From an uncultured Hyphomicrobiales bacterium (GTDB taxonomy: Bacteria; Bacteroidota; Ignavibacteria; Kapaibacteriales; UBA2268): 64,000 bases of DNA. Positions 8,414 through 27,919 of this stretch are shown one piece after another; position 1 is the first letter of the stretch; each line of letters opens with the position of its first letter. Made by a program: the position numbers and the translations under genes. The notes beneath the pieces were generated by a model, which had not been told where the DNA came from, ran no database searches, and saw nothing but the letters and a program-made list of their open reading frames with translations. The stretch lies in assembly GCA_964634885.1 (NCBI GenBank), contig CAZWLN010000011.1, forward strand, positions 7,216-71,215, read 5' to 3'.

Positions 8414-8578
8414 TGGGTAATGATGGTAAAAGAAAACACGGATTGGCAACAGACAGAATATGTGTTTAAGAACTACAGCTTTAATGTAAGCCGGATGGAT
8501 AAACCTGTTTGTAACTGAGAAACCGCCGCACTAATTATATCTATTACTTCTTATGCGACTTACATGTAACTGTACTCT

Positions 8579-9103: not shown

Positions 9104-9170
9104 TGCCTTGTTCCCCAAAATTTATTACTGATAATTACTTATCCACGTAAATCAATTGCTAAAGAAAAAC

Positions 9171-12100
9171 CTACTGGGCTATCTCAGGTGCCATACGTAC
9201 TGAAACAACCTTTGTCAGGCCCACTTCCTGCATCGTAATGCCGTAGAGCGTATCTGCAGAGCTCATCGTACGCTTGTTGTGCGTAACGATCATAAACTGT
9301 GTCTCGACGCTGAATTCCTTAATGAGATTAAGGTATTTGTCGATGTTGGCGTCGTCCAGAGGGGCGTCAACTTCGTCGAGGATGCAGAAGGGACTGGGCT
9401 TGACGAGGTAGATACCGAACAGCAGGGCGATTGCCGTCAGTGTCTTCTCTCCGCTGGACAGCGCTTCGATTGAGTTCGGCCTTTTGTTCGGTGGCTTGGC
9501 AACGATCTCGATGTCACATTCCAGGGGATTGCCTTCTGAAAGCTGGAGATGGGCTTCGCCGTCGTCTCCGAATAGTTTCCTGAACAAGCCGGAGAAATTG
9601 GTATTTACCTGTGCATAGGTCTCCATGAACTTTGTCTCGGCTGTCTGGTTGATTTCGTCGATGGTTTCTTTCAGTGTTTTCTCCGAATCGACAAGGTCCT
9701 TGATCTGCTTCTGGTAGAAATCGAGCCTCTGGCTCTCACGCTCATAGTCCTCCAGCGCCATGAAATTGACGCTGCCGATGGCCATCAGCTTTTCTTTGAT
9801 GTTCTTCAGTTCATATTTCGTATCTTCCACCGAAAACTCGGGGTCTTCTTCGAACAGTGCGGTTTCGAGTTCAATCTCAAAGCTGTCTTTTGCCCTGACG
9901 ACGAGGCTGTTTTTCAATGACCTGTACTCATTGAGGTTCAGTTCATACTGGTGCATGCTCTCGGTGAAACGTTCGTGGCCCTTTCTCAGGTTCGACAGCT
10001 CGTCGCTGTGCCTGCCGATCTGCTCCTGGACAGAATTGATCTGCTCTTCGATGTATTCGCTGGAAGTTTTTGCCTGGTCTCCGGTACCTTTCAGCGCTTC
10101 GAGTTCAAGCGCCAACGCCTGGAGCGTGTCTTTGTACTGCTGTTTCCGCTCGTCGTTCTTCTGTAGCTCGTCCCTGCTGTTTGTGTTCCTTTCAGTCAGG
10201 TTCGTGAGTTCCGACCGGTAGTGGTCAATATCTTTCCGGAGCGAGTTGGCTTCTGCCTCGAGTTGGTACCTGACTTTCTCGGAAGCGCGGACGGTTTCGT
10301 CACATTCGTCGTATTCCTTCTCAGAGTTGCGTACACCGCCGATGACAGACTGGTACTCTTCCTTGAGGACGGCATAGTTTCCGTTCATTTCGTCGAGTTC
10401 GGATTCATAGTTCCCAGTTTCGGAGTTGATCTGAAGTATCTCTTCGTTGAACCTGCCGAGATTGGTCTCGATGAGGTTTCTTTTGTTAACGAGGTTTTGC
10501 TTTTTGAAATTTATTTCCGCAATCTGGTTGTTAAGCTTGTTTTTGTTGTTCTCGCTGGCTCTCAGGTTCTCGTTCAGTTTGTTGATGTCGATGGCGGCGT
10601 AATTGCTCTTTGCAATCCTGTATTCTTCCGCAAGCTCGGTGATGGTTTTGTTGAGTTCCCATATTTCTTTTTCCAGTGTTTCCATTCTCTCGCGCTTACC
10701 TACGGACAAGCCTTCGGTGTCTCCGATGGCTCCGCCTTTGATGATGCCCTTTGAGGTTACCAGTTCGCCGTCCATGGTAATGGCAGCGTCGGCAATGCCG
10801 AAGTCAACCATGTCGATGGCGTTCTGCAGCACATCGACAAGGAGAGTTTTTCCGAGTAAAGCCCTGAGTACATTCCTCAGTTGCGGGTCCACTCTTACGA
10901 TTTCGCTGAGCCAACCGATGATGCCGTCGCCGATGACCGGTTCGCCCGGGGGCATGACTTCAGGAACGGAATCGCGGCAGATGAAAACAGCTTTGCCTTT
11001 CTCATTTTTCTTCAGTGCATTGAACGCTGCAAAAGCCTGCTGCCTGTTGTCAACGATGAAATAGCCCGCTGCTTCGCCCAGGGCAGCTTCGACTGCAACA
11101 CGATGCTCGTCGTCGGCGCCGATGGCTTCGGCAAGCAGTACCTTGACGCATTCCGGATTCCAGTCCTCAGTTTCAATCAGGAACTTCGTACTTTCGTCAG
11201 CGTCAACAAATCCTTTGTAGAAATCCAGTTCGGCGGTGTTGCGGCTGTGGGCATTCTTAAGTTCAGCCAGGTCCTCCTGCAGTTTGTCGATGGCCCTCGC
11301 CAGAGCTGCTTGCTCCTCCTGTGCCGCGAATAGTTCGTCTTCGGCGTCCTTGATTGCCTGTTGGTTCTCTTCTTTTTGTTTTTCGTTCTTTTCAATCTCT
11401 CCGTCCAGGTCGCCAAGGCTGTTGTTGATCTTTTCAATCTCCGTATCGTTCTCCGAGAGGTTGTTCTCGATTGTTTCAACCCTCTGTCTGTTCCTGGCAA
11501 TATGAGTTTTTGTCGTTTCGATTGAATTCTGAAGCCTGATCAGCTCTTCATTTTTCATGTTGGCTTCTTCGCGCAAGCCGTTCAGTTCGGACAGGAGCTT
11601 GTCCCTTTTTGTCCTCAGGCCTTCCAGGCTGTCTTCGGTCTCGTTCTTTTTGTTGACAGTCTCGTCCAGCTTATTAGCGGCTTCTTCGGACTGGGCCTTG
11701 ATTCGGCTGCTGTTTTCCTCGAACGAGGCAATCTCCCTTGCAATCCTGTTCTGGTCGTTATCGATGGCGATTATTTTCTCGTTGATGACGGCAATCTCTT
11801 TGTTCTTGGAAGCCAGGGCGTTGTTAAGTTCGCCTTCGAGATCGCGTGCTTTCTGGTATTCTTTGTTAAGGTTGTTCAGGTTGATTTTCAGTTCGTTGAG
11901 GTGGTTTTCACTCTCCCCGATCTTCTCTTCGAATTCCTTCTTCTTTCCGACAGTGTCTTTACCGGATTCGAGCAGCTTCTCTTCCTGCTTTTTCAGCCGG
12001 TCATACTCGTGGTACACTAATTTGATGTCCAGTTCTTTGTGCTGTGCCATCAGCTTGTTGTAGCGCATTGTCTTAGAAGCTTGCCGGGAGAGCGAATTGA

Positions 12101-12704
12101 CGTTCTTTTCCACTTCCTGGACAATATCTTCGACACGCATGAGGTCGGTCTGGACAGACTCGAGCTTCTTGGCTGCTTCTTTTCTCCTGGCTTTGTATTT
12201 TGTTACGCCGGCTGCTTCTTCAAACAGGTGCCGCCTTTCTTCGGGCTTACCGCTGAGGATTGCCTCGACCATCTTCAATTCGATGACCGAGTAGGAATCC
12301 GGGCCCATTCCCGTATCCATGAACAGGTCGGTAACGTCGCGCAGCCTGCACTTGGCGTTGTTAATGAGGTAGTGGCTTTCGCCGTTGCGGAACAGCCTTC
12401 TGGTAATCTTTACTTCGGTGTATTCCGTCGGCAGCTTCTGTTTGTTGTTCTGAAGTGTGATGGAAACTTCGGCCATGCCGAGAGGTTTACGCTTGTCGGT
12501 ACCGTTGAAGATGACATTCTCCATCACGTCGGAACGAAGTACCGCAGTCTTTTGCTCGCCGAGCACCCACCTGATTGCGTCGAGGATATTCGTCTTTCCG
12601 CAGCCGTTCGGTCCTACGAAGCTGGTTATTCCTTCGGAGAACCTGAAGGTAGTTTTATTCGCAAAGGATTTGAATCCTATTATTTCTAAATCAGATAAAT
12701 ACAT
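9171..12704 (-). CDS. smc: Chromosome segregation protein SMC
   Basis: GFKSF, Walker A GPNGCGKTN, long coiled coils with hinge, LSSGEK signature, ILDEVDAPLDDAN, THNK. Confidence 0.98.
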   Translation of the reverse strand: MYLSDLEIIGFKSFANKTTFRFSEGITSFVGPNGCGKTNILDAIRWVLGEQKTAVLRSDVMENVIFNGTDKRKPLGMAEVSITLQNNKQKLPTEYTEVKITRRLFRNGESHYLINNAKCRLRDVTDLFMDTGMGPDSYSVIELKMVEAILSGKPEERRHLFEEAAGVTKYKARRKEAAKKLESVQTDLMRVEDIVQEVEKNVNSLSRQASKTMRYNKLMAQHKELDIKLVYHEYDRLKKQEEKLLESGKDTVGKKKEFEEKIGESENHLNELKINLNNLNKEYQKARDLEGELNNALASKNKEIAVINEKIIAIDNDQNRIAREIASFEENSSRIKAQSEEAANKLDETVNKKNETEDSLEGLRTKRDKLLSELNGLREEANMKNEELIRLQNSIETTKTHIARNRQRVETIENNLSENDTEIEKINNSLGDLDGEIEKNEKQKEENQQAIKDAEDELFAAQEEQAALARAIDKLQEDLAELKNAHSRNTAELDFYKGFVDADESTKFLIETEDWNPECVKVLLAEAIGADDEHRVAVEAALGEAAGYFIVDNRQQAFAAFNALKKNEKGKAVFICRDSVPEVMPPGEPVIGDGIIGWLSEIVRVDPQLRNVLRALLGKTLLVDVLQNAIDMVDFGIADAAITMDGELVTSKGIIKGGAIGDTEGLSVGKRERMETLEKEIWELNKTITELAEEYRIAKSNYAAIDINKLNENLRASENNKNKLNNQIAEINFKKQNLVNKRNLIETNLGRFNEEILQINSETGNYESELDEMNGNYAVLKEEYQSVIGGVRNSEKEYDECDETVRASEKVRYQLEAEANSLRKDIDHYRSELTNLTERNTNSRDELQKNDERKQQYKDTLQALALELEALKGTGDQAKTSSEYIEEQINSVQEQIGRHSDELSNLRKGHERFTESMHQYELNLNEYRSLKNSLVVRAKDSFEIELETALFEEDPEFSVEDTKYELKNIKEKLMAIGSVNFMALEDYERESQRLDFYQKQIKDLVDSEKTLKETIDEINQTAETKFMETYAQVNTNFSGLFRKLFGDDGEAHLQLSEGNPLECDIEIVAKPPNKRPNSIEALSSGEKTLTAIALLFGIYLVKPSPFCILDEVDAPLDDANIDKYLNLIKEFSVETQFMIVTHNKRTMSSADTLYGITMQEVGLTKVVSVRMAPEIAQ

Positions 12705-12759
12705 ATTTATATTAAATTTCTAAAATTCTGCTTTTAACAAACTGTAAAAATAAGAAAAA

Positions 12760-13299
12760 TCAGTTCAACATTTTAAATCTCTTGCCGGGAATTTTCAAAA
12801 GCATGGCAAAGAGGCCATAGAATGTGGTATAGAAGGAGCTTGCAATGCCATAGACCAGGAAGTACTGGTACAGGAACCCGCTGTTGAGGTCGATGTGGAA
12901 CAGGTAGTATATCAGGTTGTGGACAGCGGCAGTTGAAAACAGAATTACAAGGAATTTGTAGCTTTTGATGATCTGGTCGGTTTTTTCCTCAACATAGAAG
13001 AAGCCGGCAATGAACGCGACAATTGTTTTTACTAAGGCATTGGTACCGATTATGTCCTGGGAAGCAATATCGAAGAACAAGCCTATTATGAATCCGGCAA
13101 AGACAGCAACGAAGCGTCCTTCCGAGAGGGCAATCCACACACAGAGTATTACCAGCAGGTCCGGGGCGATGTTTCCCAGGGAGATGTAACGCAGGAAGGT
13201 CAGGTGGAAAAGCGTAAGAAGGGACATTGCCACAGCATACCAGATGAGCCTTGTCCTGAATGATCTTGTCCTTACCGTTTTTTCAGATACGATTTTCAT
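12760..13299 (-). CDS. mreD: Rod shape-determining protein MreD
   Basis: Multi-TM protein with PDLLVILCVW and GFIIGLFFDI, directly after mreC. Confidence 0.88.
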   Translation of the reverse strand: MKIVSEKTVRTRSFRTRLIWYAVAMSLLTLFHLTFLRYISLGNIAPDLLVILCVWIALSEGRFVAVFAGFIIGLFFDIASQDIIGTNALVKTIVAFIAGFFYVEEKTDQIIKSYKFLVILFSTAAVHNLIYYLFHIDLNSGFLYQYFLVYGIASSFYTTFYGLFAMLLKIPGKRFKMLN

Positions 13300-13308
13300 T
13301 GTCTGTGC

Positions 13309-14169
13309 CTACTGTTTGTTTGGTTGCTGCCGTGACTGAAGCCTCTTGTCCATGTCCCTGACAAGCTTCTGCAAGTCCGGGTCGGGCAGGTATTTCAGGA
13401 TGAACAATTGCTGCAATGTTGAAAAATTGACGAATGTGTTGACTTTAATAACCAGATGTATGCCTCCGGGGTCTTCTTCGATTTTTGAAATCTCGCCGAT
13501 AGGTATGCCCTCGGGGTATTTACTGCTGAAATAGGAAGTTATGATCTTGTCGCCTTCTTCCACGCCCGAATTTTTCGAGACGTAATTCATTTTGAATGTC
13601 GAACTGCTGTACCACTCGAGGGTACCTTCGATGTACTTGCCTTCGACCCTTGCCGAAATGACAGTGCCGGGATTGTCGATGAGGTCTATGATCGAGTAGT
13701 TTGAAGAAGCGCCGAAAACGTAGCCTACCAAGCCGGCTTCGGTACGCACGGCCATTCCTTCCTCGACACCGTCTTCGGTGCCCCGGTTAACAGTAAGGTA
13801 AGTTTTCATGAATTTTGTGGACTTGCCGGTAATATCGGCAAGAATATGCGGGTCGTCGAGTTTGTCGCGGAAACCGAGGGTTTCCCTCAGGCTTTTGTTT
13901 TCCAGGAGCGCTTTCCTCATCCTGGCAACTTCATTGGAAAGCTGCAGGTTAAGCTCGCGCAGGGACTGGTTCTCGCTTTCCAGCGCAGCGGGATCGGGTA
14001 TAAATGAAAAAATGTCCTGGAGCCAGCCTACGCCGCCGATAATCAGCGTCCTGAAACCGCCCATCCTGGAAGCCCCGTTCATGGATATGAGAAATACACT
14101 GATGATTACAAGGGCAACGAAGGACAGGTAGTCCTTATATTTCATCACAAAATTTATCAGCCTTTGCAT
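13309..14169 (-). CDS. mreC: Rod shape-determining protein MreC
   Basis: N-terminal TM, coiled coil ending ENKSLRETL, LTVNRGTEDGV, YPEGIPIG. Confidence 0.95.
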   Translation of the reverse strand: MQRLINFVMKYKDYLSFVALVIISVFLISMNGASRMGGFRTLIIGGVGWLQDIFSFIPDPAALESENQSLRELNLQLSNEVARMRKALLENKSLRETLGFRDKLDDPHILADITGKSTKFMKTYLTVNRGTEDGVEEGMAVRTEAGLVGYVFGASSNYSIIDLIDNPGTVISARVEGKYIEGTLEWYSSSTFKMNYVSKNSGVEEGDKIITSYFSSKYPEGIPIGEISKIEEDPGGIHLVIKVNTFVNFSTLQQLFILKYLPDPDLQKLVRDMDKRLQSRQQPNKQ

Positions 14170-14198
14170 CGAGCCGCTTTTTCAGTTACTAATGCTTA

Positions 14199-15221
14199 TT
14201 AATAGCGTGTTGCTTTAAGTAATACATTGGAATACTCGGTAATATTCTCAAGCACGTGACCGGTACCGCGTACAACAGCAGTAAGCGGGTCGTCGGCAAC
14301 GTGAACCGGCAATCCTGTTTCCTGTTTCAGCCTGTCGTCCAGTTTGAGCAGCAGTGCGCCGCCACCTGTGAGCATTATGCCCCTGTCGAAGATGTCGGCG
14401 GAAAGTTCCGGCGGTGTTCTTTCGAGGAGGTTAAGAACAGCCTGGACTATTTCATTGACCGGTTCTGCGAGCGCTTCGCGAATTTCTTCGGAACCGACGC
14501 GAATCATCTTAGGAATACCCGTAAGCAGGTCACGGCCCTTGACTTCCACTTCGATTTCTTCGTCGAGAGGTGCCGCAGAGCCGACTCTGTGCTTAATCAT
14601 CTCGGCAGTACGGTCGCCGATGAGTATGTTGTGTACGCGTTTGAAGTACTGGACAATGGCCTGTGTCATCTCGTCGCCGGCAGTACGTATGGATTCGACG
14701 GTAACGATGCCCGACAGTGCAATGACTGCAATCTCGGTAGTGCCGCCGCCGATGTCCACGATCATGTTGCCGATGGGCTCATGGACATTGAGTCCGATGC
14801 CGATGGCGCCGGCCATTGGTTCGGCGATGAGGTGCACTTCTTTTGCTCCTGCGTGTTCGCAACTGTCGCGAACAGCTCTCTTTTCAACTTCGGTAATGCC
14901 GCTGGGTACACAAACCACTACCCTGCGGGCAGGCTGCCAACTGAGGGACACTTTGCGTATGAAAGCCCTGAGCATGCCTTCTGTAATTTCAAAATCAGCG
15001 ATCGCCCCGTCCCTCATGGGCCGGATGATCTTTATTTCCCTGTGAGTCTTGCCGACCATTGCCTGGGCTTCATGCCCTATGGCAATGATGTGCTTGCTTG
15101 ATCTGTCGAAAGCCACAATAGAAGGCTCGTTGAGGACAATGCCTTTGCCCTTCATCCAGATGAGGGAGTTGGCGGTCCCGAGGTCTATCGCCACGTCGTT
15201 TGTAAATATTCTTAACTGCAT
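14199..15221 (-). CDS. mreB: Rod shape-determining protein MreB
   Basis: AIDLGTANS, RPMRDGAIADF, IVDIGGGTTE, GIMLTGGGALL. Confidence 0.98.
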   Translation of the reverse strand: MQLRIFTNDVAIDLGTANSLIWMKGKGIVLNEPSIVAFDRSSKHIIAIGHEAQAMVGKTHREIKIIRPMRDGAIADFEITEGMLRAFIRKVSLSWQPARRVVVCVPSGITEVEKRAVRDSCEHAGAKEVHLIAEPMAGAIGIGLNVHEPIGNMIVDIGGGTTEIAVIALSGIVTVESIRTAGDEMTQAIVQYFKRVHNILIGDRTAEMIKHRVGSAAPLDEEIEVEVKGRDLLTGIPKMIRVGSEEIREALAEPVNEIVQAVLNLLERTPPELSADIFDRGIMLTGGGALLLKLDDRLKQETGLPVHVADDPLTAVVRGTGHVLENITEYSNVLLKATRY

Positions 15222-16127: not shown

Positions 16128-17396
16128 ATGCTTTTAGAATTCAAAATCCGCAACTTTCGCTCAATCCGTGAGGAACTTACATTGTCGATGATGTCTTCCG
16201 GCAGGCTGGGAAAGAAAGACCTGCCCGACAATGTCGCCCTCCACGACAAGTTCAAAGCCGTTAAAAGCTTAGTCTTGTACGGCAGGAACGCTTCGGGGAA
16301 AAGTAATGTTATACTTGCAATACTTGCATTACAGAATATTGTCTCACAATCTGACAAGTTCAGGATTAATGAAAGGATACCTGTTTATGAGCCATTTTTA
16401 CTCGACGATGAATATATCAATAAACCTGTAATGTTTGCAATCGACTTCATCGGATATGATAATAACAGGTACAATTATCTTATCGAATTTAACAGTGATG
16501 AAATATTAAAAGAAGAATTATTTTTTTATCCTAATGGTGTAAAGTCAAAACTTTATAAGAGAGATGGTTTGGAACTATCATACGGAGACTATTTCTCCGG
16601 AAATAGAAAATCAATTGAAAATGAACTTTTAAAGAACCAATTGTTTCTTTCTAAGTCTTCAACAATGAGGTTTAAATATTTGAATGAAGTGTATTCATCT
16701 ATCATTGCTTATGTCAGTGTAATGAAAAATCAGACTGATTTTGACCGTGGACTTCCAATCGGAATGACAGAGGATAAAACAAAAAGAATGAATAGTATTA
16801 TTAATTTATTGAAAAATGCAGACACGAATATTCATGATTTTAAACTAATCAGACAAAATGCCGCAGAATCTCATTTTGCACAAAGTTTTTTATATAGTGT
16901 TCATGAAGATGAAAAGCCTTATTGGTCGTTTGAAAAAATTAATCTTAAAACAATGCATCCTGTCTTCAGAAACGGTCAAATAGTCAGATATACAGATTTT
17001 GATTTTACCCAGGAATCATCAGGAACAAAAAAACTATTCGGGATAAGCTATCAGTTACTTACCTGTCTTGATAACGGAGGAATTTTATTCGTAGATGAGC
17101 TTGACCAAAGCCTGCATCCTTTGCTTACAAGGATGTTGATTGGCCTGTTCCACAACCCGGAAACCAATCCCAAAAATGCTCAACTGATCTTTGCAACCCA
17201 CGACAGCTACTTACTCGATTCCGAACTGTTCCGCAGGGACCAGATAGGTTTTGTCGAAAAGGGCTATGAAGGGAATTCGGAATTGTACAGGTTGAGCGAC
17301 ATCAAAGGCGTAAGGAAGGACATTCCAATCGACAAGTGGTACCTGAGCGGAAGGTTCGGCGCCATTCCGGTCATCGGAGACTTCAGTCTGAAATAA
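16128..17396 (+). CDS. AAA_21-type ATPase (RloA/AbiEii/AbiLi-like)
   Basis: MLLEFKIRNFRSIR, GRNASGKSN, ESSGTKKLF, LFVDELDQSLHP, QLIFATHD, FRRDQIGF, YLSGRFGAIP. Confidence 0.9.
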   Translation: MLLEFKIRNFRSIREELTLSMMSSGRLGKKDLPDNVALHDKFKAVKSLVLYGRNASGKSNVILAILALQNIVSQSDKFRINERIPVYEPFLLDDEYINKPVMFAIDFIGYDNNRYNYLIEFNSDEILKEELFFYPNGVKSKLYKRDGLELSYGDYFSGNRKSIENELLKNQLFLSKSSTMRFKYLNEVYSSIIAYVSVMKNQTDFDRGLPIGMTEDKTKRMNSIINLLKNADTNIHDFKLIRQNAAESHFAQSFLYSVHEDEKPYWSFEKINLKTMHPVFRNGQIVRYTDFDFTQESSGTKKLFGISYQLLTCLDNGGILFVDELDQSLHPLLTRMLIGLFHNPETNPKNAQLIFATHDSYLLDSELFRRDQIGFVEKGYEGNSELYRLSDIKGVRKDIPIDKWYLSGRFGAIPVIGDFSLK

Positions 17397-17715: not shown

Positions 17716-17979
17716 CTAATACATTCTTCTATTTGATTGTGGTTTTTCCTGCGCTAATTTTACAGTGATTGTCCTGCCCTGTATATCAGTTTCATTCAAT
17801 CCGTCCATTGCTTTTCTGGCAGCGTTGTCAGACATTTCGACAAAACCGAAGCCACGAGACATTCCGGTTTCTCTGTCAGTAATAATTTTGAGAGAATCGA
17901 TTTCTCCAAATTCTCTAAATTCCGAAGTCAATTCGGCTTCGGTCATGCTGTTGGGAAGGTTCCCGACAAATAATTTCAT
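17716..17979 (-). CDS. RNA-binding protein, single RRM domain (copy 1)
   Basis: RNP2 LFVGNL and RNP1 RGFGFVEM. Confidence 0.95.
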   Translation of the reverse strand: MKLFVGNLPNSMTEAELTSEFREFGEIDSLKIITDRETGMSRGFGFVEMSDNAARKAMDGLNETDIQGRTITVKLAQEKPQSNRRMY

Positions 17980-18417: not shown

Positions 18418-19899
18418 ATGAATGCCTTACTAATCTACCCGGAGTACCCGGCTACATTCTGGAGTTTTAAATATGCCCTGTCATTTATAAATAAAAAAGC
18501 TTCGCTTCCGCCTTTGGGTTTGCTTACTGTCGCTTCAATGCTCCCCGTTCAATGGGATAAAAAGCTGGTTGACATGAATGTATCCGAATTGAAAGATGAG
18601 GACATCGAATGGGCAGACTATGTCCTGATCAGCGGGATGACGGTTCAAAGGGCATCGGCACAAGAGGTAATCGACAGGGTAAGGCAATTTGGGAAATTGA
18701 TTGTTGCCGGAGGGCCTTTGTTTACAAACGAAACGGAGTCTTTCAAGAACGTGGATTGCTTTGTGCTCAACGAAGGCGAGGTCACTATCCCTATGTTTCT
18801 GGAAGGACTGAAAAACGGCGACCTGAAAAGGGTGTACTCATCCGCCGAAAGGCCTGAGATGACCAAAACACCGCTGCCGGACTGGTCGTTGATCGATCCC
18901 GGCGATTACTCTTCGATGTCGATACAAATCACACGCGGATGTCCCTACAATTGCGATTTCTGTGATATTGTGGTTATTAACGGCAGGGTTCCGAGATTGA
19001 AGACTGTGGCTCAGGTCAGGTCCGAACTCGACGCAATTTACAACACCGGCTGGAGAGGCAGCCTGTTTATTGTCGATGATAATTTCATCGGCAATTATAG
19101 CAAGGTGAAACAAATACTATCCGGAATAATCGAATGGATGGATGAGAAAAAGAGGCCTTTCTCCCTGTCAACCGAAGCTCCCATCACGCTTGCCGACAAT
19201 GAAGATATTGTCGATCTGATGCGAAAAGCCAATTTTGTGAAGGTCTTCGTAGGCATTGAAACGCCGGATGAAGAAGGCTTAAAGTCATGCGGCAAGCACC
19301 AGAATCTCAACATGAACCTAACCGAAAAAGTGAAATGGCTTCAAAGGAATGGAATCGAAGTCCAGGGTGGGTTCATCGTAGGTTTTGATACAGATACGCC
19401 CGGTATTTTCGACAATATGATCAGGTTCATCCAGGGAAGCGGCATCGTAACGGCAATGGTAGGCTTGCTCCATGCCATGCCGGAAACAAACCTGTATAGG
19501 AAACTTCAACACGAAGACAGGATCATCAACGCGCCAACAGGTAACAATACGGACAGCACACTGAATTTCCTGCCGAAGATGAACATTGACACTCTAACCG
19601 AGGGATACCGGAAAATCCAGGACACTATTTTCTCACCCAAGCCATTTTACAGGAGAGTAAAAGTGTTTCTGAAGGAATACCGCAGTCCGAAGGTATCATC
19701 GGGATTGACAGTGGCTACACAGATAAAAGCGCTTTCAAAATCGATATTAAAAATGGGGATAATTGAAAAAGGAAAAATTCATTTCTGGAAAGTACTGATT
19801 TGGACTACATTTCGCAAACCAAGGTTGTTCCCGTTAGCAATTACGATGTCTATCTACGGCTATCATTTCAGGCAGGTACTCCTGAACCAGAATATATAG
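18418..19899 (+). CDS. B12-binding class B radical SAM protein with DUF4070-like C-terminus (HpnP-like)
   Basis: PPLGLLTVAS B12-binding start, CPYNCDFC (CxxxCxxC), FIVDDNF, GFIVGFDTD, C-terminal YGYHF. Confidence 0.88.
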   Translation: MNALLIYPEYPATFWSFKYALSFINKKASLPPLGLLTVASMLPVQWDKKLVDMNVSELKDEDIEWADYVLISGMTVQRASAQEVIDRVRQFGKLIVAGGPLFTNETESFKNVDCFVLNEGEVTIPMFLEGLKNGDLKRVYSSAERPEMTKTPLPDWSLIDPGDYSSMSIQITRGCPYNCDFCDIVVINGRVPRLKTVAQVRSELDAIYNTGWRGSLFIVDDNFIGNYSKVKQILSGIIEWMDEKKRPFSLSTEAPITLADNEDIVDLMRKANFVKVFVGIETPDEEGLKSCGKHQNLNMNLTEKVKWLQRNGIEVQGGFIVGFDTDTPGIFDNMIRFIQGSGIVTAMVGLLHAMPETNLYRKLQHEDRIINAPTGNNTDSTLNFLPKMNIDTLTEGYRKIQDTIFSPKPFYRRVKVFLKEYRSPKVSSGLTVATQIKALSKSILKMGIIEKGKIHFWKVLIWTTFRKPRLFPLAITMSIYGYHFRQVLLNQNI

Positions 19900-19999: not shown

Positions 20000-22963
20000 A
20001 TGAAAATATTAATAGTTGATGACAATCAGGAAAGCCTGGAAAAGACAGAATTACTTTTCAGAAGAAACAACCATCGCGTTCATTCTGCTATCGGCGGCAT
20101 GCTGGCGCTTAAGAAGCTTCGTTCCGAAAAGTATGATATAATCATCTCCGAAATACAAATGCCGGCTATGGATGGTTTCAAACTGTGCAAGGAATGCAAA
20201 AAAGATATTGAATTGAGAAATATATGTTTTATATTCTATACAGGAACATTTGTCGATGATAAGGATGAAGAATTTGCTTTATTGTTAGGCGCACAGAGAT
20301 TGATACGCAAGCCACAAGAACCGGAAGTTCTTCACAGTATTATTAAGGAAATAATTGAAAAAAAAGGGAATTCCCAAATTGTACCGAAGAACATTATTGA
20401 AAAAGATGGAAGAGAGTGGCATAAGCTTATCAGTGAACGCCTGGTTACAAAAATAGAGAATAAGAATCATGATTTGGAAAATGAAATAGCTTCATATAAA
20501 AGTACGTTGAAAGCATTGAGCGCATCTGAAATCCAGTATCGCCGACTGTTTGAATCGGCAAAAGACGGCATTTTGATTCTCGACACAGACACTGGAAAGG
20601 TCGTTGACGTTAATCCCTATTTAATCAATATTTTACACAATAATTACGAACAAATCATCGGAAAAGCAGTGTGGGAATTGGGATTTTTAAATGATGTTAT
20701 TGCCAGCTATGACAAGTTCTATGAGTTATGTCAAAGGGAATACGTGCGTTACGAAGATTTGCCGCTTAAAACTGCCGACGGAAAACGTGTCGATGTGGAA
20801 TTTGTCAGCAATGTCTATCTCGTAAATAGCAACAAGGTTATCCAATGTAATATTCGCAATATTAGTGAACATAAGATAAAAGAAGATCAACTGAAACTTT
20901 TTGCCGTTATTCTCGAGCAATTGAACAGGCAAGATGAATGGCAAATTCTGATCAGCGATATATTGAAAGAATTAAAATTGTTTTCGGGATTCGATTCGGT
21001 AGGAATCCGGCTGAAGAATGGGAACGATTATCCATATTATCTTCAATATGGTTTTACAGAAGCAATTCTTACTGAGGAAAACAGGCTTTGTGCGACAAAC
21101 AAATATGGTTCCATAGACATGGATCAGGATGGCATGCCGGTACTTGAGTGTCAATGCGGAGTTGTGTTGTCAGGTAAAACAGATTCAGGAAAGCCTTATT
21201 ATACCAAAGGCGGCAGCTTTTGGACTAATCAATTTAGCGAATTAGAAGAGATGGGGTCCAATGATGACATTAGTACGCAAACCAGGAATAATTGCATTCA
21301 TTCAGGTTATATGTCTGTGGCATTACTACCGATTGTTACCGGCAATAAGACGGCCGGATTGCTGCAATTCAGTTGCAAACAACCCGATATGTTTACACTT
21401 AGCCTGATTGAATTCTATGAAAAAATTGCCTCGACTATCGGGATTGCTTATAACAGAATTCAGTCGGGAGAGAAAATCAGAAAAAGCGAAATCAAATATC
21501 GCGACTTAGTTGATAATGCATTGGTCGGTGTTTATCGAACTTCTTTGGAAGGCGAGATCACATATTGTAACGAAGCCATGCTAAATATATTAGAATTTGA
21601 AGGCAACGATTATAAAGAATTGAATACAAATGTTTCGTATAGGAATTCAGACGAAAGAAATTTATTGATAAATACAATCCGGGATGCCGGAACAATAAAC
21701 AATTTTGAAACTGAATTAATTACTTACAAGGGGAAAAAGATACATGTTGTTATTAACGGTAAGCTTGACGGCAATCAGCTTTCCGGTATGATACTCGACG
21801 ACACAGAACGCAAACTGGCTGAGCGGGAACTAAAGAAAGCACTCGAAAAAGCCGAAGAAAGAGACAAACTGAAAACCGCTTTCCTACACAATATGTCACA
21901 CGAAATACGAACCCCTCTGAATGGTATCATAGGGTTCTCTGAATTGCTTAAAAATGATGATATTACACGTGATGATATAGCCGAATTTACGGATATAATC
22001 AAGCGAAGCGGAAAAAGGCTTATTGAAATAGTGAATAATGTTCTCGAAATTGCCAGAATTGAGACAGGGCAAGTACAAATGGAAAAAAGACAAATTAATA
22101 TTAATTCAATTCTATCAGACTTATTTGACTTTTTTGCTCCATTGGCAAAGGTTAAGAGTCTTAATTTGGATTACCATATTTATAAAAATGATAAAAAAGT
22201 GCTGGTATATACTGATGAAACGAAGCTGCATCAGATACTTACCAATTTGATAAACAATGCAATAAAGTTTACCAAATCCGGCAGCATAGATTTTGGCTAT
22301 GTAATCAAAGGTAATACTGTTCAATTCTATGTAAAAGACACAGGAATCGGTATCCCGCCTGAGTTTATGGATAAAATCTTTAACAGGTTCATTCAGGTCG
22401 GACAGCCGCTTTCGAATGAGCATGAAGGAGCCGGGCTTGGGCTGGCTATTTGCAAAAGCCTGGTAGAATTGCTCGAAGGCAGAATATGGATTGAATCTGA
22501 AATTAACAAGGGTTCTACATTTTACTTTACATTGCCATATACTCCCGATGCAATACCAGCCAGGATAAATATTACATATACCGAAAACACAATTAAACAA
22601 ACTCCCGGAAAAATCCTGGTTGTTGAGGACGATCTGACAAGTTTCATGTATCTTAACAAACTTTTGGGAAAGCATGATATTTTTCCTTTACATGCTAAAA
22701 ATGGTAAACAGGCGGTCGATTTTGTAAATAATACACCAAGCATCGAATTAATACTAATGGATATAAAAATGCCATTAATGGACGGTATCGAAGCAATGAA
22801 AAAAATAAAGGAAATAAGGCCCGATTTACATGTCATTGCTCTGACAGCTTATGCTTTCACCGAGGAACGAAACAACATCCTATCCATCGGCTTTGATGAC
22901 TATATAGCAAAACCGATTGGAAAAGAGGCAATATTGGATGTCATTTGTAATTATATGAAATAG
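20000..22963 (+). CDS. Hybrid sensor kinase (REC-PAS-GAF-PAS-HisKA-HATPase-REC)
   Basis: H-box HNMSHEIRTP, N/G boxes (NNAIKFT, DTGIGI, GAGLGL), C-terminal REC LMDIKMP; the N-terminal REC has E at the phospho-Asp position. Confidence 0.92.
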   Translation: MKILIVDDNQESLEKTELLFRRNNHRVHSAIGGMLALKKLRSEKYDIIISEIQMPAMDGFKLCKECKKDIELRNICFIFYTGTFVDDKDEEFALLLGAQRLIRKPQEPEVLHSIIKEIIEKKGNSQIVPKNIIEKDGREWHKLISERLVTKIENKNHDLENEIASYKSTLKALSASEIQYRRLFESAKDGILILDTDTGKVVDVNPYLINILHNNYEQIIGKAVWELGFLNDVIASYDKFYELCQREYVRYEDLPLKTADGKRVDVEFVSNVYLVNSNKVIQCNIRNISEHKIKEDQLKLFAVILEQLNRQDEWQILISDILKELKLFSGFDSVGIRLKNGNDYPYYLQYGFTEAILTEENRLCATNKYGSIDMDQDGMPVLECQCGVVLSGKTDSGKPYYTKGGSFWTNQFSELEEMGSNDDISTQTRNNCIHSGYMSVALLPIVTGNKTAGLLQFSCKQPDMFTLSLIEFYEKIASTIGIAYNRIQSGEKIRKSEIKYRDLVDNALVGVYRTSLEGEITYCNEAMLNILEFEGNDYKELNTNVSYRNSDERNLLINTIRDAGTINNFETELITYKGKKIHVVINGKLDGNQLSGMILDDTERKLAERELKKALEKAEERDKLKTAFLHNMSHEIRTPLNGIIGFSELLKNDDITRDDIAEFTDIIKRSGKRLIEIVNNVLEIARIETGQVQMEKRQININSILSDLFDFFAPLAKVKSLNLDYHIYKNDKKVLVYTDETKLHQILTNLINNAIKFTKSGSIDFGYVIKGNTVQFYVKDTGIGIPPEFMDKIFNRFIQVGQPLSNEHEGAGLGLAICKSLVELLEGRIWIESEINKGSTFYFTLPYTPDAIPARINITYTENTIKQTPGKILVVEDDLTSFMYLNKLLGKHDIFPLHAKNGKQAVDFVNNTPSIELILMDIKMPLMDGIEAMKKIKEIRPDLHVIALTAYAFTEERNNILSIGFDDYIAKPIGKEAILDVICNYMK

Positions 22964-23106: not shown

Positions 23107-23445
23107 TTACATATAGCCGTTTTTGATGACGGTCAGAATCATCTTAAACCGTTCATTCGCCCTGATAATATGAGCTGAATGTGCCGGAATGACAATTGAA
23201 CTGCCGGTTTCAATAAATTTTGCTTCTGAGTTGATAATAATTTCGGCCCTGCCTTCGATGACCTGCGCAAAAGAATCAAAAGGAATGGTTCTTTCGTCCA
23301 AAGCTTCCCCGTCGTCGAAAGACATGACAGAAACGTTTCCGGTAGCCTTTTTAATAATTGTTTTACTGACAATCGTATGAGGTTCATACTCTATTATTTC
23401 AACCAGGATTACCGGTTGCGACTTAACTATTTCGACACTGTTCAT
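23107..23445 (-). CDS. Cupin domain protein
   Basis: VMSFDDGE, QVIEGRAEII, IVIPAHSAHII. Confidence 0.85.
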   Translation of the reverse strand: MNSVEIVKSQPVILVEIIEYEPHTIVSKTIIKKATGNVSVMSFDDGEALDERTIPFDSFAQVIEGRAEIIINSEAKFIETGSSIVIPAHSAHIIRANERFKMILTVIKNGYM

Positions 23446-23490: not shown

Positions 23491-24456
23491 TCATTGCTGG
23501 TCATCAAGCCATTTCAGTAGTTCTTTGACGCTACCTGTTGCAAGGGCAATACACATGTCGGCAGCCCCATAATATACGTTAATAGTATCGCCGTCGGGTG
23601 CAATGGTGTGGCCGCAAGGGAACACGACTTTATTGACATCGCCTGTCAACTCGTATTGCTCTTCAGGACCAAACATCCAGTCATCAGACCGTTTAATGCA
23701 GAGTTCAGGCTTGTTCAAATCGAATAATGCCAGGCCCAGCCTGTAAATACAGCCGGCAGCATTTTGCTTGACACCATGATATATAATCAGCCAGCCGTCC
23801 GGCGTTTCAATTGGTGTAGATGAGAGCCCGATCTTATTGGCATCCCACCAACTGCCTCTCCTGGCTTCCATCATCAGTTTGTGGCTTCCCCAATGCCTTA
23901 AGTCGGGTGAATATGAAATCCAGATATGCGCCCTTGGAGAACTTACGGGACGATGAATTAAAGCCCAGTAATCGCCGATACGATGGGGCAGTAATGCCGC
24001 ATCCTTGTCTTCGGGCGACATAATAATGCCATATCGCTCAAAGGTGTGGAAGTCTTCCGTGAAAGCAAGCGCCACTCCGGGACCTTCAACTGCATATGCC
24101 GTATAGACGACAGCGTATTTTTTCAATTCCGGGACCCATGTAACGCGTGGGTCTTCAATGCCCCAGATTTCCTCGGGGAAATTCTCGGGTTCGGGCCTTA
24201 ATGTCCCTTCTTTATCGATAGCCCAATTATCTACCCCATTCTTTGAACGAGCGGCACAAAGATGAGACTGGCCGTTTCTTTCCTCTACACGGCACAGCAA
24301 CAGGGTTGTCCCGTCTTCCAAAAGAGTGGCGCCCGCGTTAAAAACACTGTTTACCGGATAGGGCCAATCGTCGGAAGTCAGTATTGGATTGTGCTTATAT
24401 CGGTGTAACAGTTTTATATATTGATGTCCCATTTTTTTCTTGTTGTTTTTTATCAT
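23491..24456 (-). CDS. GH130 family glycoside phosphorylase/glycosidase
   Basis: VFNAGA, GIEDPRV, KDAALLP, HRP, KIG, YHGV, VVFPCG, YYGAAD; ATGA overlap with the upstream glycosyltransferase. Confidence 0.9.
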   Translation of the reverse strand: MIKNNKKKMGHQYIKLLHRYKHNPILTSDDWPYPVNSVFNAGATLLEDGTTLLLCRVEERNGQSHLCAARSKNGVDNWAIDKEGTLRPEPENFPEEIWGIEDPRVTWVPELKKYAVVYTAYAVEGPGVALAFTEDFHTFERYGIIMSPEDKDAALLPHRIGDYWALIHRPVSSPRAHIWISYSPDLRHWGSHKLMMEARRGSWWDANKIGLSSTPIETPDGWLIIYHGVKQNAAGCIYRLGLALFDLNKPELCIKRSDDWMFGPEEQYELTGDVNKVVFPCGHTIAPDGDTINVYYGAADMCIALATGSVKELLKWLDDQQ

Positions 24457-26723
24457 AAAATTAAATTTTCAATATACCTCATCTCCAGAAGTGATTGTAG
24501 GAATGCCAATGTGGATTCGGCCCCCTGGTTTTCATTTGTTCTGTCGCTATGTAAGCCGTCGCGGCAACCACCGGTCGTTGGGTCGTAAATGGATAGATTC
24601 AGGTCATTCCTGCCAAGGAACCATTCGAATGCCCGCCGGGCTTCCTGACGCCAGCGTTCTTCGCCGGTAATCCTGTACGCTTCGAGACAGGCTGAAACCA
24701 TGGTTTGAGCCTCGACCGGCTGTTGGTCGAACCTTGCGCGTTCTCCGTTCCTGGGGAAAAATCCATTCGAACCGATGGGCACAAAATGTCCGCCTACCGA
24801 ATCGGCTTTCTGCAAATCGGCTAACCATTGCAGCGATTCGAGGCCTTTTTCTGTCATGGAACTGTTGGGTATCGAACTTCCGCCTATTAATAATGCATGC
24901 GGCAAAGCAGCATTGCAATAGCTCAGGCTCTTTTCAAACCACGGCCAGTTTGGGGAATGAATATTTTCATACAACGCAAGTAACCGTTCAGCCAATTCCG
25001 AACGTACATGACTTACCTTGCTGTCGCCCGCAAATCGTTGAGAATACTCGTTAATGCCCATGAGAGCGAAGGACCATGCGCGGGGGCTTGTCATTGTGAG
25101 AATAGCGGGCAGGGCCTGTTCGAAAAGCCTACCGGCAAGGCTTTGCAGAGAAGGCGTTTTTGACCTCCCCAGCACGGTGCCTAATGACCAAAGAGTTCGG
25201 CCGTGGCTGTCGTCTGAACCTGCTGTTTCAAGCCAATTGCGCCGGAAGTCAAGAAAATTCCTGAAATGGCCGTTGCCGCTGTTGAAAGCATACATAATGA
25301 ACGCAAGGTACCGGGAAGCCATTTTTGACGCTTCTCCGTTGTACACTGATTCCAACAAAATGCTGACAATCAGGGCACGGGCATTGTCGTCCGTTGTGTA
25401 TCCTTCTTCGTAGTTAGGTACAGAAAATACAGCATGTTGAAATATTCCCGTATCGTCCGTCATCCTTAACAGATGGTCGAGTTTGAGAGGTGGAAGTTCC
25501 CCGGGCTTTTCGTTCAAAGTCTTAACGACATGAACCGGGTGTTTTGTAGAATTCATGCGCTCTACACGTGCGCGCTGGAAGCTCTCCATATAGTGTTGTG
25601 CCGACTTGGACCATAACATCTCCCTGCCGAACATATAGGCCCGTTTACGCATCGCATGGCGGTTCTGTTCGTCGTCGAGCAGTCTGATTACCTGTTCCGA
25701 AAGAGTTTCAGGATCGTGAAAAGGCACAAGTACACCACGCTCTTCAGCCAGCATTTCTTCGGCATACCAATAGGGTGTGGAAATGACTGCTTTGCCGGCT
25801 CCCAGAGTGTAAGCCAGCGTGCCAGACGTGATCTGCGTTTCATTAAGATAGGGTGTGATGTATATATCAGCGGCGCCGATGAACTGAATCAGTTCATCAA
25901 TACTAACGAAGCGGTTATAGAATATTACCTGGCTTTCAACACCGTTCTCATGCGCCAGCCATTGAAGGGACAATCGGTAGTTTTCACCGTCGTTGCGTTT
26001 CACATGAGGGTGCGTTTCACCAAGAACAATATATACTACATTAGGATGGCGTTCAATAATTTTCGGAAGGGCTGAGATTACACTCTCTATTCCTTTGCTT
26101 GGGGACAGCAATCCAAAAGTTAACAATACGGTTTTGCCTTCGACGCTGAACAAGTCCTTGTGAAAACTCGGGTCGACAAAAGGTACGTCGGGTATGCCGT
26201 GATGGATCATGTCGATTTTTTCGGGTGGTACTTTGTATATATCCTGAAGGAATTCGGCTCCTCTTTCGCTCATTACTACCAATCTGTCCGAAAGAGCAGC
26301 AACTTTGTCAAGCACTAATTTCTGATCCTGATTCGGCTCTCGTAAAATTGTATGCAATGTTGTTACAATGGGCATCGTCAGTTCCCGCAATAAAGTAATG
26401 ATATGGCTTCCTGCCCTGCCTCCGAAAATACCGTATTCGAATTGAAGACATACGATATCGACATTATTAATATTTAAGAAATCGGAAGCACGACGATACG
26501 ACTCTATATCCTTTTCCATCAGTTCGAACCTTACCCGCGAGGGATAGTCATATCCTTCCTCGATGTCGTTGACGGGAATTGCGATGCAGGTCGTATTTGG
26601 GTATTCATCGGCGATGGCTTCGCTCAGGTCGGTAGTAAATGTTGCTATGCCACACTGCCGTGGCAAATAATTACCGATGAAAGCTATCCTGTTTATCGAT
26701 TTATTTTTTAAATTCTTTGACAT
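24453..26723 (-). CDS. GT4 glycosyltransferase fused to a C-terminal (alpha/alpha)-toroid glycosidase-like domain
   Basis: N-terminal GT-B domain (PRQCGIATFT, QFEYGIFGG, GLLSPSKGIE, SGTLAY, STPYWYAEE); C-terminal DDTGIFQHA, YTTDDNAR, FDQQPVEA, NQGAESTL. Confidence 0.88.
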   Translation of the reverse strand: MSKNLKNKSINRIAFIGNYLPRQCGIATFTTDLSEAIADEYPNTTCIAIPVNDIEEGYDYPSRVRFELMEKDIESYRRASDFLNINNVDIVCLQFEYGIFGGRAGSHIITLLRELTMPIVTTLHTILREPNQDQKLVLDKVAALSDRLVVMSERGAEFLQDIYKVPPEKIDMIHHGIPDVPFVDPSFHKDLFSVEGKTVLLTFGLLSPSKGIESVISALPKIIERHPNVVYIVLGETHPHVKRNDGENYRLSLQWLAHENGVESQVIFYNRFVSIDELIQFIGAADIYITPYLNETQITSGTLAYTLGAGKAVISTPYWYAEEMLAEERGVLVPFHDPETLSEQVIRLLDDEQNRHAMRKRAYMFGREMLWSKSAQHYMESFQRARVERMNSTKHPVHVVKTLNEKPGELPPLKLDHLLRMTDDTGIFQHAVFSVPNYEEGYTTDDNARALIVSILLESVYNGEASKMASRYLAFIMYAFNSGNGHFRNFLDFRRNWLETAGSDDSHGRTLWSLGTVLGRSKTPSLQSLAGRLFEQALPAILTMTSPRAWSFALMGINEYSQRFAGDSKVSHVRSELAERLLALYENIHSPNWPWFEKSLSYCNAALPHALLIGGSSIPNSSMTEKGLESLQWLADLQKADSVGGHFVPIGSNGFFPRNGERARFDQQPVEAQTMVSACLEAYRITGEERWRQEARRAFEWFLGRNDLNLSIYDPTTGGCRDGLHSDRTNENQGAESTLAFLQSLLEMRYIENLIL

Positions 26724-26739
26724 ATTACTAATCCTGCTA

Positions 26740-27597
26740 TTACTTGGGAAGCAAAGACTTTACTCCTGCCAATTCCCCGATTATATTAACCAACTCGGAT
26801 CCCTGTGGAACGATTACCTTGGCATTGTTTGCAAGAGAATTCTCAACAGCTTCGAGTTTTCTCATCAATTGCGCATTGCCGATGAAGTATTGATCAGCGG
26901 CTTCATTGACCAATTTTATAGAAGCGGCGTCGCCTTCGGCGTGCAATATCTTTGCCTGGCGGTATCCTTCGGCTTCCTTGATTTTTGCGCGTTTTTCGCC
27001 GTCAGCTACCGTTTCTCTTGCCGAGGCAAAGTCAACTGCTGCCACTTTTTCATTTTCAGCTTTTACGACTTTGTTCATTGTCTCTTGTACATCAGAGGGC
27101 GGGTCAATCTCTTTCAGTTCGGTTCGGACGATTTCGATTCCCCAGTTATGTGTTTCTTCGAGCAGCGTTCTGTGCAGTTCGGCGTTGATCTTTCCTCTTT
27201 CGCTGTTGGCGGACTTCAGGGTCAGGGTACCAATTATGTTCCTCAGAGTCGTTCGTGCAAGGTTGACAATCTGGTACATATAATTGTTGACATTGTACTG
27301 CGAGTTTTTTACGCTTTCTTCGTCCGATTTGACCTTGAAATAGACCTGGGCGTCAACCTTTGCGTTCAGGTTGTCATTGGTAATAATCTCCTGGCGTTCC
27401 GCATTGATCATCGATTCGGTTACATTTACCCTGTACATCCGTTCGATAAATGGGAATACCCAGTGAAAGCCCGGCTCGGCAAACCTGTTGTATTTACCCA
27501 GGCGCTCGGTCAATCCCCTGTGAGTAGGCCTGACAATCCTTACGCCGCTCCAAACAAATAATACGACGAACAGAGCTCCTCCCAAAATAATTTCCAT
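26740..27597 (-). CDS. SPFH/band 7 membrane protein
   Basis: N-terminal TM, ERLGKY..PGFHW, ITNDNLNAKVDA, WGIEIVRTELKEI. Confidence 0.93.
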   Translation of the reverse strand: MEIILGGALFVVLFVWSGVRIVRPTHRGLTERLGKYNRFAEPGFHWVFPFIERMYRVNVTESMINAERQEIITNDNLNAKVDAQVYFKVKSDEESVKNSQYNVNNYMYQIVNLARTTLRNIIGTLTLKSANSERGKINAELHRTLLEETHNWGIEIVRTELKEIDPPSDVQETMNKVVKAENEKVAAVDFASARETVADGEKRAKIKEAEGYRQAKILHAEGDAASIKLVNEAADQYFIGNAQLMRKLEAVENSLANNAKVIVPQGSELVNIIGELAGVKSLLPK

Positions 27598-27655: not shown

Positions 27656-27919
27656 TTAACAGTATCTTCTGACGGTATCCTTTTTATCCTGTGCAATACG
27701 AACTGATATTTTCCTGCCGTCCATGTCCGAATTGTTAAGCTTATTTATAGCTCTGCGGGCATCGTCATCAGCCATTTCAAGGAAACCGTAACCACGGGAT
27801 CTTCCTGTCTCTTTGTCAGTAATTATTTTCAAAGACTCTATATCGCCATATTCATAAAATTCGGACTTCAATTCGTCTTCGGTAACACTGTTGGGAAGAT
27901 TCCCCACAAATAGTATCAT
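27656..27919 (-). CDS. RNA-binding protein, single RRM domain (copy 2)
   Basis: LFVGNL and RGYGFLEM; about 53/87 residues identical to copy 1 by manual alignment. Confidence 0.95.
   Translation of the reverse strand: MILFVGNLPNSVTEDELKSEFYEYGDIESLKIITDKETGRSRGYGFLEMADDDARRAINKLNNSDMDGRKISVRIAQDKKDTVRRYC

Follow-up and report, generated by a model that had tools for sequence, protein, structure and literature searches.

Genomic analysis of a conserved gene pair encoding a GT4-barrel fusion protein and a phosphorylase-type GH130 protein

The 64,000 nt stretch of contig CAZWLN010000011.1 (assembly GCA_964634885.1) analysed here, referred to below as the window, contains two overlapping genes encoding a 756-aa fusion protein (P0001; its family is called GT4X below) and a 321-aa GH130 protein (P0002); coordinates are those of the window unless another locus is named. 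GT4X joins a GT4-like glycosyltransferase domain of the GT-B fold to a C-terminal (α/α)6 barrel, and its gene is linked to a GH130 gene at loci spanning at least 15 phyla. We tentatively propose that the pair constitutes a cytoplasmic two-gene module that builds a mannose-containing glycoside or short glycan and mobilises it by phosphorolysis. The comparisons described below establish the domain identities, the GH130 catalytic signatures, the barrel fold, the genomic partnership and very strong purifying selection; we infer the substrates, the order of the steps and the physiological role of the module.

Linkage, conservation and history of the pair

The GT4X gene lies on the reverse strand at 24453..26723 and the GH130 gene follows it on the same strand at 23491..24456. 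The junction reads ...TTA TGA for the end of the former and ATG ATA AAA for the start of the latter, giving an ATGA stop/start overlap at 24453..24456 that is a candidate for translational coupling. This overlap had been pointed out in a preliminary description of the window, and it is not peculiar to this genome; of 56 called GT4X-GH130 pairs, 31 have a -4 nt overlap and another 9 a -1 nt overlap. No hydrophobic N-terminus or segment was found in P0001 or P0002 (the 19-residue Kyte-Doolittle maximum is 1.2), in agreement with the earlier remark that neither has a signal peptide, and their sequences support the prediction that both are cytoplasmic proteins.

A scan with one genome per species returned at least 571 relatives, from which the best 80 loci were taken. 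At 68 of the 80 a GH130 gene whose product is at least 55 % identical to P0002 lies directly downstream of GT4X, and at two more such a gene lies within 2.4 kb. At five loci an additional plain GT4 gene precedes a divergent GH130 (38-40 % identity), one has a GH130 (45 % identity) about 5 kb upstream and not adjacent, and at the remaining four, two of them with short flanks, no GH130 was found. The linkage extends to a more distant set of 12 Bacteroidota genomes, whose GT4X relatives show 30-48 % identity in 11 cases and 63 % in the remaining one (L085); in nine of the 12 a GH130 is present within about 2 kb, often upstream instead of downstream. In a sample of 151 genomes of the phylum, PF04041, the Pfam family to which P0002 belongs, is present in all 24 genomes that encode the barrel and in 40 of the 127 that do not, a comparison that is descriptive only because related genomes are not independent. 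The linkage of GT4X with GH130 is not a matter of chance, and the genes are far from being rarely linked elsewhere, the circumstance that the preliminary description had named as counting against its proposal.

Two variant arrangements were seen. At loci L009, L024, L046, L050 and L058/L059, GT4X is followed by a plain GT4 of about 377 aa and then by a GH130 that is 38-40 % identical to P0002, and the series ends with a GH130-like protein of about 490 aa bearing an N-terminal extension; L009 has the standard pair too. Cultured Flavobacterium species carry a distant version (34 % identity) in the order MlaE-MlaF-MlaD-GH130-GT4X, and in L089, a Flavobacterium-type genome, the distant pair (8352-14211 of that locus, reverse strand) lies directly downstream of genes for MlaE, an MlaF-like ABC ATPase and MlaD on the same strand. 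These distant versions in cultured species offer an experimental entry point.

The degree of conservation is unusual. P0001 has at least 8000 homologous clusters at 90 % identity, and its best 120 homologues, from Ignavibacteria, Bacteroidota, Chloroflexota, Desulfobacterota, Sumerlaeota and other groups, are 73-84 % identical over the full length; across phyla P0001 homologues show 72-84 % identity, and the pair as a whole 70-85 %. Other conserved proteins were compared in the same genome pairs, drawn from L014, L048, L057, L024, L052, L018, L028 and L033. GroEL is 58-65 % identical where GT4X is 78-85 %, GlnRS 70 % where GT4X is 82-83 %, and in cross-phylum pairs FtsH is 48-49 % and a DEAD-box helicase 37-46 % identical, against 81-82 % and 73-79 % for GT4X respectively. 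The GH130 partner, where called, is 73-82 % identical in these genome pairs, and GT4X and GH130 exceed the four reference proteins by 15-35 percentage points of identity.

Identities of this order between phyla could arise from mis-binning of metagenome-assembled genomes. This explanation was rejected, as the pair is embedded in long contigs or closed chromosomes (1.2-9.5 Mb) and its GC content at third codon positions (GC3, range 0.20-0.83) tracks host GC (r = 0.88-0.89). The GC content of the genes likewise follows that of their flanks (r = 0.88), from which we conclude that they are resident and ameliorated rather than contaminating. In hosts of intermediate GC content the pair is often 5-15 points richer in GC than its flanks (for example 0.574 versus 0.425 in L049), and in the window the GH130, GT4X and SPFH genes (23491-27597) have GC contents of 0.465-0.478 versus 0.37-0.40 for their immediate neighbours. 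The GT4X tree is star-like, with phyla polyphyletic and locally clustered, and occurrence is patchy; none of the three genomes of the same family that were searched has the pair. We read this as old transfer of both genes together between phyla, after which purifying selection has been very strong. The patchy distribution, the horizontal transfer and the variable neighbours also prompted us to consider a defence system, but PADLOC models gave no match to P0001, P0002, the SPFH protein or the cupin encoded beside them, and the strong conservation speaks against an arms race.

Domain architecture and catalytic signatures

P0002 matches PF04041 across its entire five-bladed propeller (residues 32-318) with 178.9 bits against a cut-off of 26, and it is the sole GH130 encoded in the 5.1-Mb, 98 %-complete host genome. 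Its key residues were read from an alignment to UhgbMP, with roles assigned as in Li et al. (2020; PMC7660257). The proton donor D104 of UhgbMP corresponds to D102, the phosphate-binding R168 and H231 to R169 and H227, and the +1 subsite residues R59 and D304 to R56 and D300, while E101 and K151 occupy the positions of Y103 and R150, which belong to the +1 subsite and bear on linkage specificity. Among the 56 linked orthologues R56, E101, D102, R169, H227 and D300 are invariant and K151 is present in 91 %. The preliminary description had noted phosphorylase-type basic residues in the KD, HRP, KIG and YHG segments, which carry K151, R169, K208 and H227 respectively, and the alignment bears this out, with R169 and H227 falling on the two phosphate-binding residues and K151 on R150 of UhgbMP. 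According to Li et al. (2020), an Asp proton donor, an Arg/His phosphate pair and the absence of a signal peptide mark GH130 phosphorylases, and P0002 has D102, R169/H227 and no hydrophobic N-terminus. By the rule of the same authors, a Glu/Lys pair at the UhgbMP Y103/R150 positions predicts β-1,2 specificity; with E101 and K151 in these positions, P0002 is most likely specific for β-1,2-mannosides. The same signature occurs in their uncharacterised non-gut meta-nodes UC2, UC5, UC8 and UC9 (PMC7660257).

P0002 thus shares with the known β-1,2-mannoside phosphorylases Lin0857, Teth514_1788/1789 and Uhgb_MS (CAZy GH130_4/_6) the PF04041 domain, the Asp donor, the Arg/His site, the Glu/Lys pair and the lack of a signal peptide, and its two top NCBIfam matches (NF050092 and NF052550) are both models of β-1,2-mannobiose phosphorylases. 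In phmmer comparisons with solved GH130 structures (E values 3e-51 to 1.8e-38), TM1225 is the best match (3e-51), followed by Uhgb_MS, UhgbMP, RaMP2 and Lin0857 at about 1e-47 to 1e-44, an order which indicates that P0002 represents a distinct GH130 subfamily; TM1225 itself bears the Tyr/Arg pair of β-1,4 type. Loop L2 of P0002 (HRPVSSPRAHI) is 2-3 residues shorter than that of UhgbMP or Uhgb_MS. A short or outward L2 loop has been tied to the accommodation of GDP-mannose, and every β-1,2 GH130 phosphorylase tested was found to have weak transferase activity too (Ladeveze et al., 2025; PMC12814180).

The GT-B domain of P0001 covers residues ~1-395 (25539..26723, reverse strand) and gives two Pfam matches above cut-off, to the GT4 N-terminal domain PF13439 (residues 25-177, 38.5 bits) and to PF00534 (residues 187-363, 67.5 bits). 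Foldseek relates it, with template-modelling (TM) scores, normalised to the target, of 0.7-0.8, to MshA, sucrose-phosphate synthase (SPS), GlgM, BshA and PimA. Most of its fold matches are GT4 enzymes whose acceptors are small and soluble (MshA, SPS, GlgM, BshA and TreT), and enzymes directed to lipids or lipopolysaccharide (PimA/PimB' and WaaG) are also among them. In alignment with MshA and PimA the EX7E motif is non-canonical, with E295 present, the second Glu replaced at Y305/T306 and a three-residue insertion, and in GRxxxKG the Arg is replaced by L205 and K210 is retained. In GT4X relatives of 30-35 % identity neither Glu is present, but Q-x-x-S-G-T is retained. The second Glu is present in 11 of the 15 other PF00534 proteins of the host genome, and two GlgA-like (GT5-type) paralogues bear Tyr at its position. 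GlgA-type synthases use ADP-glucose. Since these paralogues share the Tyr, the deviation from EX7E is real yet does not prove a non-nucleotide donor.

The C-terminal domain (residues 400-756; 24456..25526, reverse strand) belongs to a large family that lacks a Pfam model. Pfam gave no match to residues ~400-756 of P0001 and no family match, PF07221 included, to 98 members of the barrel family; GH family models gave none for the query and only sporadic weak matches (GH127, GH76, GH88 and GH47) in single relatives. Scanned with HMMER, 1.84 billion representatives yielded 5142 relatives at 50 % clustering, which are either fused behind a GT4 domain (proteins of ~750 aa) or stand alone (~360 aa, labelled 'hypothetical'), with a few joined to other partners such as an α/β-hydrolase or a GFO/IDH oxidoreductase. 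AlphaFold2 (AF2), run on the barrel with a diverse alignment, gave a model of high confidence (pLDDT 95.2), a barrel of helical hairpins in which 11 long helices, preceded by a short one, were called. The model of full-length P0001 is moderate (pLDDT 74, pTM 0.53), and the arrangement of its domains is left uninterpreted. The open reading frame, Pfam, AF2 and Foldseek therefore agree with the preliminary description that a GT4 domain is fused to a helical domain of about 350 aa, which we place at ~355 aa.

The same description called this domain glycosidase-like, a label that is not established by the present results. Its top Foldseek match is YPO2471 (PDB 7tem; E 1e-14, TM 0.79), a putative exported protein of Yersinia pestis, followed by cellobiose 2-epimerases, GlcNAc 2-epimerases, YihS, a glucose 2-epimerase and a mannose isomerase (E 1e-9 to 1e-7, TM ~0.7), with GH9 and GH76 enzymes ranking below these AGE-type proteins. 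An hmmsearch of the PDB with the family profile retrieved YPO2471 alone (E 1.8e-17), and YPO2471, the sole solved homologue, shares the motifs DDxARA, FxQ, G..DG and NxNxGAEST with the barrel, so that profile, structure and motifs all place the domain in a YPO2471-like (α/α)6 family; YPO2471 differs in being only ~20 % identical, standalone, annotated as exported and functionally uncharacterised. Invariant residues of the family lie where the inner helices begin (DDNAR, SDDSHGR, FDQQPxEA, GGCxDG and NxNQGAES), and H430 is its sole invariant His (full-length numbering). With the AGE superfamily the domain has in common the (α/α)6 barrel (TM ~0.7) and conserved polar residues at the inner-helix N-termini, but identity is 10-14 % and there is no evident catalytic His pair. 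An AGE-type epimerase identity was rejected since the likeness is at the level of fold only, with an hhalign probability of 0.3 against a bona fide PF07221 protein, no PF07221 match and the single invariant His. From these results we regard the barrel as a sugar-binding, probably catalytic domain of an unclassified family.

Standalone homologues of ~360-380 aa were also seen at loci L082 and L083, in unrelated contexts with no GH130 nearby; one adjoins a radical SAM gene and genes for PMT_2 and a Wzt-type ABC exporter, and the other is flanked by a CNNM/CorC gene and recO.

Possible roles of the module

GT4 enzymes are retaining and form α products, while GH130 enzymes are specific for β-mannosides. 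For this reason the GT-B domain and the GH130 must handle different bonds, and a sequential or multi-bond scheme is required. The make-and-recycle cycle put forward in the preliminary description stands in so far as the pair is linked, cytoplasmic and equipped with a phosphorylase signature; the part that does not stand is that the two enzymes could act on the same bond.

In the scheme that we propose, the GH130 would act as an inverting β-mannoside phosphorylase, most likely of β-1,2 specificity, interconverting a β-mannosyl-acceptor plus phosphate with α-mannose-1-phosphate plus acceptor, and it may add a weak GDP-mannose transferase side activity. The retaining GT-B transferase would form an α-glycosidic bond, either in the acceptor or primer or as a second linkage, and the barrel would bind the sugar and process it by hydrolysis, trimming or isomerisation. 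Such a module could build, and then mobilise without ATP cost, an intracellular mannoside serving as a reserve or stress solute, with ubiquitous sugar phosphates or nucleotide sugars as its precursors. This proposal is favoured by the linkage of the genes, adjacent at 68 of 80 loci, near at two more and evident in the distant relatives and the barrel-encoding genomes, and by their stop/start overlaps. It also draws on the Asp102, Arg169/His227 and Glu101/Lys151 residues, the top NCBIfam matches and the short L2 loop of the GH130, on the predominance of small soluble acceptors among the GT4 fold matches and the lack of hydrophobic segments, and on a conservation of GT4X above that of GroEL, FtsH and GlnRS with a GC3 that tracks the host. 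Genes for two ManC-like and three PGM/PMM enzymes are present at other places in the host genome, which is likewise consistent with it. When all ORFs within 8 kb on either side were clustered for 81 loci, no gene cluster other than GT4X-GH130 was common to more than ten, which suggests that the pair needs only common metabolites. Clusters of glgC, PMM or ROK kinase genes, in particular, were each present at three of the 81 loci at most.

Several points weigh against this proposal. P0002 falls far short of the equivalog cut-offs of the two NCBIfam models (219 versus 550 bits and 184.9 versus 450), and is thus related to these phosphorylases but not an equivalog. The GT-B domain does not carry the canonical EX7E motif with the Arg/Lys phosphate-binding pair, and because the second Glu and the phosphate-site Arg are replaced its donor, and even its activity, are uncertain. 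One standalone barrel homologue, that beside the PMT_2 and Wzt-type genes, lies in a surface-polysaccharide context. Enzymes of small-molecule or carbohydrate metabolism are not usually conserved to such an extreme degree, and no characterised member of the GT4X or P0002 clade was found in the literature.

Other roles were also weighed. Synthesis of envelope or exopolysaccharide, with the GT4 fusion extending a lipid-linked or surface glycan and the GH130 serving as a β-mannosyltransferase or editing enzyme, seems unlikely. The name 'glycosyltransferase involved in cell wall biosynthesis' that source databases give to the protein is an automatic label, and while the extra plain GT4 and GH130-like genes at some loci resemble multi-step glycan assembly and the exporter context of the standalone homologue would fit, genes for a flippase, polymerase, undecaprenyl-phosphate transferase or exporter are not conserved beside the pair in the 80 loci. 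Neither protein has membrane segments or a signal peptide, and the phosphate site of the GH130 is complete, as in cytoplasmic phosphorylases. The epimerases and isomerases that follow YPO2471 among the fold matches raise the prospect of salvage of imported β-mannosides, with the barrel acting as an epimerase or isomerase on the reducing end and the GH130 as a phosphorylase on what results; the partnership of cellobiose 2-epimerase, a known functional partner, with GH130 in mannan utilisation is an established pathway (cited in PMC7660257). We consider this role distinctly unlikely, as the barrel has no AGE relation at the level of sequence, transporter, mannanase and sugar-binding protein genes are not conserved nearby, the transferase domain would be left without a role, and the Glu/Lys signature is that of β-1,2 rather than β-1,4 specificity. 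Cellobiose 2-epimerases and AGE enzymes moreover use a catalytic His pair, against the one invariant His of the barrel family.

The replacements in the GT-B domain suggest a further alternative, a module of twin phosphorylases or transglycosylases, in which a GT-B enzyme without nucleotide binding works with a sugar-1-phosphate, as do GT4 trehalose phosphorylases, and the α-mannose-1-phosphate released by the GH130 is re-used directly for an α-glycoside, with no need of nucleotide sugars. GT4 does include phosphorylases (PMC4264767, PMC10913872). The loss of the second Glu and of the β-phosphate Arg runs through the GT4X family, with K210 and the SGT loop retained and both Glu residues gone in its distant members, and most other PF00534 transferases of the genome are canonical. 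Against this, the Tyr shared with the GlgA-like paralogues means that the substitution is no proof of lost nucleotide binding, and the fungal GT4 trehalose phosphorylase has not lost its Arg/Lys pair; on balance this alternative is improbable. An equally improbable idea is a glycoside cycle independent of nucleotide sugars, in which a GT-B domain with a remodelled nucleotide pocket and the GH130 share α-mannose-1-phosphate and the YPO2471-like barrel acts on the product, the module having spread between phyla as a unit since phosphate and a universal sugar phosphate are all that it requires; if true, the barrel would represent a new CAZy family, and the activity would be new for a GT4-like enzyme. 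Least probable of all, and very much so, is glycosylation of a conserved macromolecule, protein or RNA. It would explain both a conservation beyond that of GroEL and the neighbours related to RNA or stress (RRM proteins at 10 loci, CarD-like regulators at 7, DEAD-box helicases at 4, FtsH at 3 and GroEL at 3), but each of these neighbours is found at no more than 10 of the 81 loci and no target can be named. To our knowledge, GH130 enzymes act only on free glycosides and oligosaccharides.

For the cytoplasmic mannoside module that we favour, the closest described case is in Thermoanaerobacter, where the cluster of a GH130 β-1,2-mannoside phosphorylase contains a GT4 gene (PMC4264767), in line with the statement in the preliminary description that such phosphorylases occur beside GT4 genes in some Firmicutes. 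The present locus differs from those of known β-1,2-mannoside phosphorylases in that the partner is a GT4-barrel fusion and in having no ABC transporter, GH5 or ManC gene. The best functional analogy for a reserve that is both synthesised and phosphorolysed is with the mannogen of Leishmania (GT108 MTPs) and with bifunctional GH130 enzymes that act as both phosphorylase and transferase; there a cytoplasmic β-1,2-mannan reserve is made and phosphorolysed by five-bladed-propeller enzymes using GDP-mannose or mannose-1-phosphate (PMC8950772, PMC10913872, PMC12814180), although in Leishmania one enzyme family does all, with no GT-B or (α/α)6 partner. The logic of three activities on one intracellular glycan also recalls the glycogen-type triad of GT-B synthase, phosphorylase and (α/α)6 debranching or glucoamylase-type enzyme, and the GT-B domain resembles glycogen and sucrose-phosphate synthases in fold and shares the GlgA-like Tyr. 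The parallel does not go beyond analogy, as the phosphorylase here is a β-propeller GH130 acting on mannosides and not a GT35 enzyme, and the families are unrelated in sequence. Mannosylglucosylglycerate (MGG), considered as a possible link between GH130 and a glycosyltransferase, was dropped, since no paper was found with both terms and MggA is a GT4 α-mannosyltransferase (PMC3736172).

We found no description in the literature of the GT4X fusion, the GT4X-GH130 pair or YPO2471, and the database names of GT4X proteins are automatic labels such as 'glycosyltransferase' or 'hypothetical'. The module is nevertheless widespread, as the numbers of GT4X and barrel clusters and the at least 571 species genomes with the close clade attest, and it includes a large domain family whose sole solved structure is functionally uncharacterised. 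Knowledge of its chemistry would probably add a new activity or family to CAZy, and a common but overlooked intracellular mannoside of soil, sediment and groundwater bacteria, serving as a reserve or stress solute, could emerge. The module could also supply enzymes for the synthesis of β-mannosides.

Neighbouring genes

An SPFH/Band-7 gene (26740..27597, reverse strand; PF01145) lies 16 nt upstream of GT4X and is probably in the same transcription unit as the pair. Copies 83-88 % identical are present upstream of the pair in L004, L005 and L015 only, and this neighbour is not conserved beyond an Ignavibacteria-like clade. A small cupin gene (23107..23445, reverse strand) lies 45 nt downstream of the GH130 gene; its PF07883 match is weak, at 25.6 bits under the cut-off of 27.2, and its cluster is found at six loci of the Ignavibacteria-like clade in variable positions. 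Besides the RNA- and stress-related genes noted above, the recurrent minor neighbours at the 81 loci are a B12-radical-SAM enzyme (8), SPFH (6) and cupin (6) genes.

The window contains a radical SAM gene at 18418-19899 (forward strand), whose product has a DUF4070 domain; homologues within 8 kb of the pair occur at eight loci, with 50-77 % identity in the Ignavibacteria/Kapabacteria clade and ~30 % elsewhere. It is divergent from one of two paralogous genes for 87-aa RRM RNA-binding proteins, at 17716-17979 and 27656-27919 (both on the reverse strand), which are associated with repeats (17807-17992/27747-27932 and 18058-18103/28002-28047). An element of ~46 nt upstream of each RRM gene, with copies 74 % identical, suggests a shared promoter or 5'-UTR control of these genes.

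Upstream of the glycan genes in window numbering, a forward-strand gene at 16128-17396 encodes a 422-aa AAA_21/AAA_15 ATPase that matches the PADLOC AbiLi model (1.1e-90) and, more weakly, AriA/PtuA-type models, and it may be part of an abortive-infection or other defence locus. Between the radical SAM gene and the cupin and GH130 genes lies a forward-strand gene (20000-22963) for a 987-aa hybrid histidine kinase/response regulator with several PAS domains, whose GC content is 0.37 versus 0.47-0.48 for the glycan genes.

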